Origin: a virus
Lineage: Duplodnaviria > Heunggongvirae > Uroviricota > Caudoviricetes
Strand: one strand, 5' to 3'
Virus record (IMG/VR): IMGVR_UViG_2526164669_000027
Length of the DNA: 48,145 nucleotides
A model generated the notes under the pieces. The model did not search any database, was not told the origin of the DNA, and saw only the letters and a list, made by a program, of their open reading frames with translations. A program made the position numbers and the translations under genes. Below are positions 29,004 to 30,896 of this stretch, piece by piece (within the stretch, counting starts at the first letter, position 1; every line of letters begins with the position of its first letter).

Positions 29004-29201
29004 TCACTGAGGAAGGCGTCTGTAACAACCGAACTGATAATCTGCCAGACCCGCCATAACAAGCTGGGTCAGTATTAACTGACAGCGTTCGCGTGAAAGG
29101 TAAGTATTCTGCGCAATTTCCCCGACGGTCGCCGGTTCGGTGACGCTTAATTCATTAAATACCACTCTGGCAGTTTCGGTCATATCCTGCTGTTTTAGCA
29201 T
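29004..29201 (-). CDS. small hypothetical protein with winged-helix-like segment (65 aa)
   Basis: MLKQQDMTETARVVFNELSVTEPATVGEIAQNTYLSRERCQLILTQLVMAGL...; ATG at 29201; divergent from the gene at 29542. Confidence 0.4.
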   Translation of the reverse strand: MLKQQDMTETARVVFNELSVTEPATVGEIAQNTYLSRERCQLILTQLVMAGLADYQFGCYRRLPQ

Positions 29202-29488
29202 GTCTTTTTTCCTTTTCCGGTTAACGTGACATACCAATAACTCTTGTCTGAAAAGCCAGCAAGCTGAAAGACCGGTATTCGTAACCACCAGCGCGTTTAC
29301 TGTACTGCACTAGGTTTACAGGTACAAAAAAACCGCTCGACGGCAGGTTTAAGCTGTGTGGCGTAGTACCACTCTTAACAGCATATTTGTTTTTTTACGA
29401 TTGTAAAACGTTTATCACCATAATTTTTATAGAATTTATGTCAGCAAAATGCAAAAATCCTTAATGAGCCTCGTGTCTCATCGCAGTA

Positions 29489-29511
29489 TTACATTCCAGT
29501 ATGGAATGTAA
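29489..29511. promoter_or_regulatory. perfect 10-3-10 inverted repeat TTACATTCCA-gta-TGGAATGTAA (putative operator)
   Basis: Read directly; lies about 30 bp upstream of the ATG at 29542 in an AT-rich promoter-like region. Confidence 0.5.
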
Positions 29512-29541
29512 CTTTAGACATTACTACACAGGGATTATCTT

Positions 29542-30729
29542 ATGTCTCTTCGCTTCAGACAAACTTTTACCATTTTCCCCGGAGTACGCCTTAACATCGG
29601 TAAACATGGGGTAAGCGCAAGTTTTGGTGTCCCCGGAGCCACAGTTAATGTTAACCAAAAAGGAATTAAAGCAACTCTAGGGTTACCAGGATCTGGTTTA
29701 TCGTATACATCCCCTCGTTTACCATACAAAGACAAACCATCCACAACCATTCAGCTAAATCCGTCGTCTGTAGAATCTCATATTGATGCACCCGAGTTAA
29801 TTTCAGACAACACCCCATCAAACGCAAAAATGTACATGCCACAAACAGGCATGAATGAAATCTCCAGTGCCTCAGTAGAGGCCTTGACAAGTACATCTCT
29901 TTTACCTTTACGAGACTTGATCGTTAAAGCACGAGAACAAAGAGCGGAAATAGCATCTGACTTACAAGAGGCTCTTGCAGAAGAATCAAGACAAAAGAGT
30001 GAATTGGCTCGACGTAAATCAAGCCTGTTTCGATGGTTTTATAAACGTCGCATTGCAGAACTTGAAGCAACGCTACCACAAATACAAGCAGAAGTATCTC
30101 GTCTTGTATCCTGGGAAGATAACACTAAAATCGTCATTAATTTCGAAACCAGCGATTCCTCACAGCGGGCTTATGCAGCAATGATTCGTGCTTTCGATAT
30201 TTTAAAATCAAGTATCAAAAAATGGGATATTACCGCAGATAAAGCTATAGATCAGTTTGCAGAAAGGACGTTAGCTACACGAGCAGTTGATCGTCATCCA
30301 GTCGTATTTGATTTCGCTTCAACAGATCTAATTCGTTTTACTGGAAGAGCAATGCGATTTGAAAATGTCAATGGCGACGATATATTGCTTTATCCGGGTA
30401 TTGCTGTAATTCCTCGCCCCGATGGGGCATTTGCTCTGATTGACTTACGGGAATTACAAATTAATGCGCAGCATCAAGGGTTCCATGAAGAGGATGGTGT
30501 TCCGAGTGATGCCAGCATAGCTGGGCATACATGGGCAAAAACAAATAAAGATGGCTCACCAGACCGACGATTTAAAGATAACTATCAAATCCCAATTTGC
30601 ATTTATGGAAAGTTATATTTCCAGTCCCAAACAGGCATTACAGAAGAATACATGGTATCAAATGCTGATGCTGCTCTAGCTTTCGCGGAGGCATTTAAGC
30701 GCTATCAGGATTCACTTAGCATGGAGTAA
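29542..30729 (+). CDS. hypothetical 395-aa protein; N-terminal Gly/Val-rich segment (DUF4236-like as recalled), coiled-coil segment, uncharacterised C-terminal domain
   Basis: Clean ORF with own upstream region, low GC, antisense to the late operon, in the Q-to-lysis cargo slot. Confidence 0.8.
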   Translation: MSLRFRQTFTIFPGVRLNIGKHGVSASFGVPGATVNVNQKGIKATLGLPGSGLSYTSPRLPYKDKPSTTIQLNPSSVESHIDAPELISDNTPSNAKMYMPQTGMNEISSASVEALTSTSLLPLRDLIVKAREQRAEIASDLQEALAEESRQKSELARRKSSLFRWFYKRRIAELEATLPQIQAEVSRLVSWEDNTKIVINFETSDSSQRAYAAMIRAFDILKSSIKKWDITADKAIDQFAERTLATRAVDRHPVVFDFASTDLIRFTGRAMRFENVNGDDILLYPGIAVIPRPDGAFALIDLRELQINAQHQGFHEEDGVPSDASIAGHTWAKTNKDGSPDRRFKDNYQIPICIYGKLYFQSQTGITEEYMVSNADAALAFAEAFKRYQDSLSME

Positions 30730-30896
30730 GCGTTAATATAGAACCCAGCTTCATATTTTATACCTTTTGAATGATTGCTTTAATAGCGAAAACCACTCAA
30801 CAACCTAATGCTGCCCAAATAATGAGGCAGCTATAATATTCTAGTTTAGGGGCATTATTCGCCCCTCATAAAGAAAAGAATTCTATGAGAATTAAA
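30730..30896 (-). promoter_or_regulatory. putative late promoter / Q-utilisation / terminator region downstream of Q
   Basis: AT-rich, contains hairpins GGGGCATTATTCGCCCC and GCTGCCCAAATAATGAGGCAGC; position equivalent to pR'-qut-tR'. Confidence 0.35.

Follow-up and report, generated by a model that had tools for sequence, protein, structure and literature searches.

What kind of gene lies between Q, the antiterminator gene of a lambdoid prophage, and the late promoter pR', and what its product might do for the carrier, are the questions raised by the locus described here. The locus is part of a 48,145-nucleotide stretch of DNA (IMG/VR record IMGVR_UViG_2526164669_000027; Caudoviricetes), referred to as the window, whose prophage is integrated next to a yecE-like gene. 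Lambdoid morons, or lysogenic-conversion genes, include bor and lom of lambda and stx of the Stx phages. The gene in the window, here called the cargo gene, is likewise a single-gene mobile accessory cassette ("moron"), placed in the spacer between Q and pR', directed away from pR' and converging on Q. The late regulatory region and the cassette consist of the following features.

29004..29201, minus strand: 65-aa winged-helix-like ORF, the first gene after tR' (phrog_331, E=1.4e-37)
29325..29379, minus strand: conserved initial transcribed region (GTTAAGAGTGGTTACT.CGCCACACAGCTTAAAC) and tR'-like hairpin with T-tract (alignment, terminator scan)
about 29380..29407, minus strand: late promoter pR'-like site, TTTACA, 16 nt, TATGCT (promoter scan)
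29413..29488, plus strand: remnant of "Block 1" of the cassette upstream region (multiple alignment of upstream regions)
29416..30903, no strand: variable slot from the Q stop codon to the pR' -35 element, 1,488 bp here
29489..29511, no strand: perfect 10-3-10 palindrome on a deletion scar of the cassette upstream region (sequence)
29530..29534, plus strand: Shine-Dalgarno-like AGGGA, 7 nt 5' of the cargo ATG (sequence)
29542..30729, plus strand: cargo ORF of the DUF4236/phrog_17982 family, 395 aa, stop codon included (ORF list)
30897..31262, minus strand: antiterminator Q, Q21/Q933W family, tail-to-tail with the cargo gene (Pfam PF06530, E=1.9e-51)

The assignment of Q to the Q21/Q933W family follows Yin, Kaelber and Ebright (bioRxiv 10.1101/651190), in whose description the late cassette is composed of Q, pR', a pause element and tR'. 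The window has the PF06530 Q, the promoter, the strictly conserved initial transcribed region and an intrinsic terminator before the late genes; the Q-binding element is not among the parts recognised. The promoter-like site, kept in eight related prophages immediately 5' of the leader, the conserved 37-nt leader itself and a hairpin with a U-tract were found at all eight related loci, and the window copy of the tR'-like hairpin is the weakest of these variants (-5.3 vs -6.3 to -15.8 kcal/mol). A search for Rfam elements in 28900-31000 found none. The initial annotation had described the cargo gene as antisense to the late operon, but pR', leader and terminator are located at about 29325-29407 on the minus strand, downstream of the gene in the direction in which Q is transcribed; the cargo gene is therefore upstream of and divergent from pR', and not antisense to the late transcript. 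The slot is AT-richer than its surroundings, as had been proposed, with a GC content of 0.401 for 29416-30903 vs 0.506 for the whole window, and only 1.4% of equal-sized windows reach a value as low.

The slot had also been likened to the classic cargo site that holds stx. This comparison is right in that acquired cargo sits in a variable slot by Q, and wrong as to the type of site: an stx-type site is downstream of pR'/tR' and Q-dependent, whereas the cargo gene here is upstream of pR' on the opposite strand; lom, for its part, belongs to the tail region. In related prophages the slot is empty (38 bp), holds a 148-aa lipoprotein gene or an ORF6N gene, or consists of about 500 bp without an annotated gene. 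Q is set apart from pR' by 1.5 kb of foreign DNA here vs 38 bp in Stx2 phage 1720a-02. Like lambdoid morons, the cargo gene is carried by some and missing from others of the otherwise syntenic prophages that share Q and pR'; its base composition deviates, its orientation does not follow the surrounding operon, and it is close to Q and the late region. Unlike them, it has no autonomous promoter or terminator elements that can be demonstrated here by promoter and terminator scans.

The distribution of the gene supports its mobility. At the Q slot it was found in 13 of 5,426 complete E. coli genomes, and five further kinds of context contain the ORF with its ribosome-binding site at 75-80% DNA identity: a prophage end by ssrA and tail fibre, a prophage end by tail-fibre assembly genes, after the replication genes O/P, in an ICE, and on a conjugative plasmid. 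ORF copies at 62-82% identity occupy prophage ends, the position after O/P, ICE, plasmid and alphaproteobacterial chromosomes, and 24 of 35 close IMG/VR relatives are located no more than 3 kb from a prophage end. The 20-27 bp 5' of the ORF, including AGGGA, travel with it in all contexts, and blastn homology to the other contexts begins at 29515-29523. Some relatives occur in ordinary chromosomal contexts, including plain chromosomal singletons, and the copies have neither a conserved operon partner nor a conserved chromosomal position. Among 50,697 sequenced phage genomes, only two contain a full-length copy. Two Microcystis phages carry a relative (35% identical) just after the large terminase gene, in the same orientation as the surrounding genes.

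The 65-aa ORF was correctly described as divergent and 340 bp away, with winged-helix matches that are weak (TrmB, E=0.0026, below cut-off). A near-identical protein of 64-65 aa is encoded at the same position after tR' in prophages devoid of the cargo gene, including an Stx2e phage, and the identical accession WP_000917767.1 is found in several strains. Since it is the first late-operon gene in phages without cargo, it was rejected as a partner or dedicated regulator of the cargo gene.

The upstream region was said to contain the gene's own promoter. The sigma-70 scan detected no plus-strand site 5' of the ORF, and the promoter-like block present in other copies is deleted here. Block 1 is common to the Serratia ICE and plasmid copies and to those of Pectobacterium, Citrobacter and Enterobacter, whereas about 100 nt of the conserved "Block 2", with its TATAAA/TATAAT element, are missing from the window; TAGAAT, a -10-like hexamer, is still present at 29430-29435. 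No Rfam element was found in the long upstream region of the Serratia copy, and for the conserved upstream block RNAalifold gives a negligible consensus structure (-2.7 kcal/mol). The terminator scan gave no canonical plus-strand terminator for the cargo gene. Two hairpins without U-tracts are located 3' of the ORF, at 30810-30831 and 30848-30866.

The palindrome TTACATTCCA-gta-TGGAATGTAA is indeed present 30 bp 5' of the ATG, and its right arm is a remnant of Block 2. That it is more than a chance occurrence was not confirmed: the window contains three perfect inverted repeats with arms of at least 10 bp, vs 0.43 +/- 0.63 expected, and one alone is not improbable. A role as operator, bound by a dimeric repressor (CI, the 65-aa protein or a host factor) that controls the cargo gene, is unlikely. 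Its perfect 10-bp arms, its uniqueness in the window, the short distance to the ATG and the excess of perfect inverted repeats argue for such a role, but in allele B (four loci) the left arm differs at three clustered positions (TTAT-TGCCA), leaving the palindrome imperfect while the flanks are nearly identical, and every other context of the gene lacks it altogether. Half-site matches in the window number five vs 3.6 expected, which is not above chance, and a repeated operator was rejected on this count together with the missing conservation. The occurrence of the 65-aa protein without cargo also speaks against an operator, as does the merely marginal gain in stability of the RNA hairpin over shuffled sequence (z = -1.84). 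From the sequence, the palindrome is most simply read as having arisen by mutation, when a quasipalindrome was "corrected" through template switching at the deletion scar; it is probably not an operator.

The cargo gene itself was found as first described, a 395-aa plus-strand gene at 29542-30729 with the quoted N-terminus, and the DUF4236-like start was borne out by PF14020 (E=2e-19, 70.2 bits vs a gathering cut-off of 27). This match places residues 3-56 on profile positions 1-55 of 55 and covers only 14% of the protein, while phrog_17982 matches it end to end (E=3.4e-172, residues 1-393 on profile 1-382 of 390). The protein belongs to both families, and both are labels for unknown function; DUF4236 is combined elsewhere with many other C-termini in phages and plasmids. 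In the literature, the sole mention of DUF4236 was as a hypothetical protein in a Salmonella prophage remnant, and nothing relevant was found under family or accession identifiers. A four-part layout is predicted for the product.

29548..29709, plus strand: N-terminal DUF4236 domain, aa 3-56, Gly-rich beta-hairpin repeat (Pfam PF14020, AlphaFold2)
29731..29880, plus strand: linker, aa 64-113, Pro/Ser/Thr-rich, predicted disordered, sequence-variable (pLDDT <50)
29893..30123, plus strand: helical hairpin/coiled-coil, aa 118-194 (AlphaFold2)
30124..30726, plus strand: C-terminal alpha/beta domain, aa 195-395 (AlphaFold2 on the domain alone)

According to the AlphaFold2 models, the beta-hairpin head would consist of six short strands (pLDDT about 70-75), followed by the disordered linker, which is without consensus in the family alignment. 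The coiled-coil and the C-terminal domain of about 200 aa that had been expected next correspond to a modelled helical hairpin (helices 118-160 and 164-194, pLDDT about 90) and a separate alpha/beta domain, which modelled alone reaches pLDDT 84 and pTM 0.83. The near-invariant motif TWxKxNKDGSPDRRFxxNYQIP is predicted to form a highly polar loop in this domain, whose family comprises 3,270 clusters (50% identity) matching at E<=1e-3. Neither a signal peptide nor a membrane helix is predicted, which indicates a cytoplasmic product. In longer relatives, an extra membrane helix and a periplasmic SH3b or peptidoglycan-binding domain (PG_binding_1) are added.

The C-terminal domain belongs to no named family: searches of Pfam, NCBIfam, PADLOC and PHROGs with the whole protein and with the domain returned only DUF4236 and phrog_17982, and a sequence-profile search of PDB with the cargo protein gave no match. 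In the structural comparison that had been recommended, Foldseek yielded no match at E<0.01 in PDB or BFVD, and most of the top PDB matches were PH domains. In the model, residues 250-395 form antiparallel strands in succession, capped by a long C-terminal helix as in PH domains, so a weak resemblance to a PH-like beta-sandwich may be suggested; the likeness is below significance (best E 0.02, TM 0.24-0.26 by query and about 0.4 by target), the domain is some 60-80 residues larger than a PH domain, and no bacterial PH family is matched by sequence. A PD-(D/E)xK nuclease reading of "RPDG...DLRE" was set aside, since in the wider family these residues reach no more than 50-80% conservation. No nuclease, NTPase, TIR, pore or other effector domain was recognisable in the cargo protein with Pfam, NCBIfam, the PDB profile search or Foldseek against PDB and BFVD.

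Comparison of the cargo ORF with its homologues gave dN/dS values of 0.09-0.20. Because these values hold also against allele B, which carries the same promoter-region deletion, the gene is, by its substitution pattern, functional and under purifying selection.

A lysogenic-conversion, exclusion or defence function had been proposed at the outset, and homology to a structural or lysis protein was named as grounds for abandoning it. Searches of Pfam, PHROGs, NCBIfam and PDB sequences, and Foldseek comparisons with PDB and BFVD, revealed no homology of this kind and therefore provide no such grounds. The recommended comparison with known defence systems came back empty, with no family at E<=0.1 in PADLOC-DB v2.0. 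What evidence there is for such a function comes from the neighbourhood. A Gabija pair adjoins the cassette in two Serratia elements, the ICE and the plasmid; the elements share the cassette only, the two pairs come from different subfamilies, and Gabija is missing from the vicinity of most copies, so that an obligate link was rejected. In uncontrolled counts, PDC-S31, a PADLOC candidate, matches 6 of 88 scanned neighbour ORFs (31 prophage loci), and a set of 119 neighbour ORFs from 22 loci includes HamA, AbiLi, PifA, AriA and LmuA. AbiJ and a RES-Xre toxin-antitoxin pair were detected near longer relatives, and an AcrVA2-like gene near an Azospirillum relative. The commonest prophage neighbours are UmuD-like, DinI, SRAP and UmuC genes rather than defence genes, and many neighbours are SOS-type accessory or housekeeping genes. 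Since the gene moves among phages, plasmids and conjugative elements and often adjoins anti-phage defence genes, it may reasonably be put forward as a candidate, as yet unproven, for a new gene of defence or exclusion, and a defence role of its product is plausible. Single-gene defence proteins are known from hotspots of prophages and ICEs, such as BstA beside the repressor, the P2/P4 hotspot cargo and SXT ICE hotspot 5. The cargo gene is similarly stand-alone: more than one kind of mobile element carries it in a variable slot, known defence systems are often its neighbours, and its orientation suits lysogen expression. Unlike theirs, its product has no PADLOC v2 match or recognisable effector domain and is known here from sequence alone.

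The overall explanation that we tentatively prefer, at somewhat less than an even chance, is a mobile, lysogen-expressed, membrane-proximal moron that protects the lysogen against phages or mobile elements. The helical hairpin and beta head would mediate self-assembly, and the C-terminal domain may bind some conserved partner or ligand at the cytoplasmic membrane, on its inner side; this location is suggested because in longer relatives the module is joined to a membrane helix and, in the periplasm, an SH3b or peptidoglycan-binding domain. The gene would be expressed on its own in the lysogen and probably silenced during lytic growth by convergent transcription reading through Q. Lysogen expression is something we infer only, since the -10-bearing block is deleted and no consensus promoter is seen. 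The likeliest benefit would be shielding of the lysogen from other phages or mobile elements by a single-protein exclusion or abortive-infection factor. Against this explanation stand the lost upstream block, the empty PADLOC and effector-domain searches, the missing matched control for neighbour enrichment together with the many SOS-type and housekeeping neighbours, the relatives in ordinary chromosomal contexts and the co-oriented Microcystis phage copies.

The membrane-helix and SH3b variants would fit an envelope or scaffold role equally well, and they favour the explanation that the product is a non-immune accessory or host-physiology factor, a cytoplasmic membrane-proximal scaffold acting on the envelope, cell wall or stress response, which mobile elements carry for fitness alongside SOS-type accessory genes at prophage ends. 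The predominance of UmuD-like, DinI, SRAP and UmuC neighbours, the very large size of the family with its chromosomal singletons and the lack of a recognised effector domain point the same way; but the operon partner or fixed chromosomal position usual for housekeeping envelope factors is missing, the gene is sporadic within E. coli and it repeatedly adjoins bona fide defence systems, so this explanation is possible yet on the unlikely side. An anti-defence or inter-element competition factor, neutralising host immunity (e.g., Gabija) or rival elements, would suit a gene found on three classes of mobile element, next to Gabija in two independent elements and, in Azospirillum, near an AcrVA2-like gene. 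It would be odd, however, for Gabija and its own inhibitor to be side by side on one element; the prophage-end and Q-to-pR' copies face against lytic transcription, which suits expression in the lysogen and not in early infection; and full-length copies are scarce in sequenced phages. We regard this role as improbable.

Two further explanations were weighed. Because the usual upstream promoter block is lost, nothing might be made in the lysogen, and the gene would be a silent or decaying passenger; the missing stretch of Block 2 and the absence of a plus-strand sigma-70 consensus site upstream argue for such a state. But the deletion is common to alleles A and B, which have diverged since (dS 0.15) at dN/dS 0.20, the ORF is intact in all 13 genomes and four IMG/VR contigs, and Block 1 and the TAGAAT hexamer persist, which makes a silent passenger quite unlikely. 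It is far less probable still that the gene serves the phage life cycle in late regulation, lysis or structure. Its position between Q and the lysis genes and the Microcystis relative following the terminase gene would be in keeping with such a part; yet most prophages with the same Q, pR' and late genes lack it, it is found in ICEs, plasmids and chromosomes, and it shows no similarity to lysis or structural families.

A broader reading, which we consider doubtful, joins two proposals. The proteins combining DUF4236, coiled-coil and TWxKxNKDGSPDRRF, in soluble forms and in forms with a membrane helix and periplasmic SH3b or peptidoglycan-binding domain, would constitute a large unrecognised family of single-protein immunity or exclusion factors which come together on the inner side of the membrane and detect or stop phage or plasmid DNA as it enters. 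The second, separate proposal is that Q21-type lambdoid phages have an unrecognised hotspot in their Q-to-pR' spacer, with reverse-oriented cargo that would be active in the lysogen and shut down in lytic growth by convergent early transcription.

As things stand, the cargo gene adds one more to the uncharacterised accessory genes of prophages, though its neighbours are suggestive. The comparison shows that exchangeable cargo of 0.04-1.5 kb can lie between Q and the promoter on which it acts, which matters for the annotation of late regulatory regions in Stx-type prophages and for the prediction of Q-dependent cargo. If the gene proves protective, the defence catalogue would gain a single-gene system that is widespread and has a sensor or effector domain of no known class, and DUF4236, common in phages and on about 2,700 plasmids, would receive its first function.

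The window is a lambdoid prophage, as shown by cI, an integrase and, at its right end, a DUF72 gene resembling yecE. The features relevant here are as follows.

26648-27040, minus strand, holin, downstream of Q
27517-27589, minus strand, tRNA-Gly, downstream of Q
27807-28853, minus strand, N6/N4 DNA methyltransferase, downstream of Q
29004-29201, minus strand, 65-aa ORF, downstream of Q
29542-30729, plus strand, cargo ORF, 395 aa
30897-31262, minus strand, late antiterminator Q, Q21/Q933W-type (PF06530)
upstream of Q, minus strand, DnaB-like and DnaC-like replication genes
37973-38860, IS3 rve/HTH_21 ORF
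38860-39186, IS3 upstream 108-aa ORF
40895-41626, cI
41723-42175, minus strand, 150-aa ORF in a second low-GC island
42833-43471, plus strand, 212-aa ORF in the same island
43833-44660, SPFH/Band-7 gene, after the 212-aa ORF

Positions 28003-29380 are 86% identical to the Stx2 phage 1720a-02, in which the shared stretch stops only 38 bp from the Q stop codon. This stretch holds a minus-strand promoter-like site (TTTACA, 16 nt, TATGCT; 29407 to 29380), followed on the same strand by an initial transcribed region of 37 nt that is almost invariant across nine related loci, and then by a hairpin and T-tract whose stem sequence varies while every variant folds. Based on these consensus matches and comparisons rather than on a mapped start, the late promoter pR' is placed at about 29380-29407. 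The tR'-like hairpin of the window (29325-29346) is the weakest of eight variants compared (-5.3 vs -6.3 to -15.8 kcal/mol), and late-operon read-through without Q may therefore be higher in this prophage. The cargo gene occupies the Q-to-pR' interval, in convergent orientation with Q and divergent from pR'. It had been described as antisense to the late operon; the inferred pR' places it off the late transcript, and it would be antisense solely to early transcription reading through Q.

The content of the Q-to-pR' spacer differs among related prophages: it measures 38 bp in 1720a-02, holds an ORF6N-domain gene on the minus strand in C311 and A8 (both bacterial strains), and spans roughly 500 bp lacking annotated genes in the UMNF18 Stx2e prophage. 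The DUF4236 gene occupies it in 13 of 5,426 complete E. coli genomes, 819 of which carry the pR' segment. The ORF is present with the N-terminus quoted in the initial annotation, and its reported AT-richness was borne out (GC 0.401 at 29416-30903 vs 0.506 window-wide); only 1.4% of equal-sized windows are this GC-poor, all of them here or in one island at about 41-43.7 kb. An origin as acquired cargo has good support and is very probable. The second GC-poor island (41700-43700, GC 0.39-0.42) lies just beyond cI towards the integrase, and its 150-aa and 212-aa ORFs have no Pfam or PADLOC match; the repressor-adjacent position is a classic cargo or defence slot. An IS3-family transposase pair is inserted in the early region (37973-39186).

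Full-length homologues with 62-93% identity were found in Serratia, Klebsiella, Enterobacter, Yersinia, Pectobacterium and Edwardsiella, and with 62-64% identity in Rhodobacterales. They reside at one Klebsiella/Raoultella prophage end (smpB/ssrA on one side, tail fibre on the other), at an E. coli O8:H25 prophage end adjoining a DUF2971 gene and genes for tail-fibre assembly, in Enterobacter lambdoid prophages following the replication genes O and P, in a variable region of a Serratia ICE, on a Serratia MOBP conjugative plasmid and Xanthomonas plasmids, and at plain chromosomal sites in Phaeobacter and Paracoccus. Across these contexts DNA homology to the window is confined to about 29515-30716, that is, the ribosome-binding site and the ORF. 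Of 35 close relatives in IMG/VR, 24 are no more than 3 kb from the end of a prophage, their 5' end facing outward, and only six are internal. The gene is thus a promiscuous singleton. The dN/dS values of 0.09 (vs Serratia/Klebsiella copies) and 0.20 (vs the sister allele) indicate purifying selection on the ORF.

In 50,697 sequenced phage genomes, the only full-length relatives were in two Microcystis phages (35% identity). The relative in Mea-Yong924-1 (L059 5067-6140) directly follows the large terminase gene and is co-oriented with the surrounding genes, whereas enterobacterial prophage copies are reverse-oriented or at borders. A different protein, with only the N-terminal DUF4236 domain in common (about 50% identity across aa 1-55), is encoded on about 2,700 plasmids (hits H101-H123), mostly large conjugative ones from Klebsiella, Escherichia, Enterobacter and Salmonella. 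An unannotated 5'-truncated copy of the cargo gene (aa 124-393, 80% identity) is present on six K. pneumoniae plasmids.

Two conserved blocks precede the ORF elsewhere. Block 2, about 105 nt and found in most contexts, has a TATAAA/TATAAT element some 45 nt upstream of the start codon; it is probably the native promoter and operator of the cassette, deleted in the window. It matched nothing in Rfam and gave no convincing RNA fold. Its TATAAA/TATAAT is flanked by the arms of a small inverted repeat, ATGTT...AACAT, and examples of the block are seen upstream of homologues at L008 7795-8000, L057 5795-6000 and L003 7880-8000. Block 1, about 85 nt, lies further upstream in ICE, plasmid, Pectobacterium, Citrobacter and Enterobacter copies. 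In E. coli, copies in the Q slot retain Block 1 (29413-29488) but have lost the greater part of Block 2.

The 23-bp palindrome TTACATTCCA-gta-TGGAATGTAA (29489-29511) is indeed present and unique in the window. A role as operator is improbable: it sits on the Block 2 deletion scar, its core CCAGTATGGAATG aligns with GCCAGTACGGGGATGGG of Block 2, and it is perfect in allele A (window, L001, L060) and imperfect in allele B (L012, L061-L063; 92-93% protein identity), with TTAT-TGCCA as left arm. The alleles differ here by three clustered changes, each giving allele A perfect complementarity, within 170 nt of nearly identical surroundings. Quasipalindrome correction by template switching is a known mutational mechanism in E. 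coli, and one such event would be the simplest origin of the palindrome. Further results also speak against an operator: half-site recurrence in the prophage was not above chance, RNA hairpin stability was barely above shuffled sequence (z = -1.84), and 48 kb may well contain one such perfect repeat (0.43 +/- 0.63 expected, three observed, one terminator-like). The window's two other perfect inverted repeats (arms of 10 bp or more) are at 27358-27382 (TCATCCCTGCAACATGCAGGGATGA), about 135 bp from tRNA-Gly, and at 515-539 (AAAACCCGGCTTAAAGCCGGGTTTT), the latter resembling a bidirectional terminator. The role suggested for the 65-aa ORF likewise needed correction. Contrary to the claim of an own promoter, no plus-strand sigma-70 consensus was found upstream of the ORF; the best candidate by eye is a TAGAAT hexamer (29430-29435) without matching -35. 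The gene is probably still expressed, because alleles A and B share the deletion yet stayed under purifying selection since diverging.

The suspected DUF4236 head was confirmed by a Pfam match (aa 3-56, E=2e-19). The family phrog_17982, of unknown function, matches the entire protein (E=3.4e-172), for which PADLOC and NCBIfam gave no match. AlphaFold2 (78-sequence alignment, mean pLDDT 74) predicted six short beta-strands for the head, a disordered linker (aa 64-113), a helical hairpin (aa 118-194, pLDDT about 90) and an alpha/beta C-terminal domain, in agreement with the coiled-coil and C-terminal domain proposed initially. Modelled alone, this domain reached pLDDT 84 and pTM 0.83. Foldseek of the prediction against PDB and BFVD returned nothing below E=0.01; the top PDB matches were nearly all PH domains, and with a query TM of only about 0.25 a PH-like fold is at most a lead. 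A profile search with the domain recovered 3,270 50%-identity clusters at E<=1e-3. The most conserved positions among the 149 best representatives (including the loop TWxKxNKDGSPDRRFxxNYQIP as well as W, D, R, N and E) point to a conserved putative binding or catalytic site. In relatives of 500-700 aa the module is followed by one hydrophobic helix (about aa 420-460), then a Pro-rich linker and SH3b or PG_binding_1, so the module is predicted to be cytoplasmic and, in these long forms, tethered to membrane and cell wall. No hydrophobic segment was found in the 395-aa protein.

Context and orientation make a defence, exclusion or conversion function plausible, and it is regarded as possible, if somewhat doubtful; homology, structure and experiment lend it no support. 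The main rival is a non-immune accessory role, membrane-proximal or envelope-related, to which the forms bearing a membrane helix and an SH3b domain point. The long forms are also singletons, and their neighbours vary among three cases examined: a RES-Xre toxin-antitoxin pair, AbiJ with an AcrVA2-like gene, and nothing notable.

The neighbours of the shorter homologues bear on the same question. The cassette alone is common to the two Serratia elements (96% identity across 1.4 kb), and in each it adjoins a Gabija pair, the two pairs falling in different PADLOC subfamilies. Among 119 ORFs within three genes of a homologue in 22 species-representative genomes, hits included HamA, AbiLi, PifA/KAP, AriA and LmuA, two subtilase and two mad2 matches, resolvases and integrases, and housekeeping genes were seen as well. 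The commonest of 88 ORFs from 31 prophage loci were UmuD-like (9), DinI (8), SRAP (7), UmuC-like, tail-fibre assembly and integrase genes; six matched the PADLOC candidate PDC-S31 (DUF2971). Such neighbours fit an accessory or defence-island gene, and the uncontrolled enrichment is suggestive only. At prophage ends a DUF2971/PDC-S31 gene (E down to 9e-21) repeatedly comes right after the DUF4236-family gene (L013 9463-10203 and six IMG/VR prophage loci), and the two may form a recurring neighbourhood.

The gene belongs to a known kind, the uncharacterised accessory genes of prophages and mobile elements. Two modestly interesting extras are the C-terminal domain family, large and unnamed, and the evidence for the Q-to-pR' spacer as a slot for exchangeable cargo.
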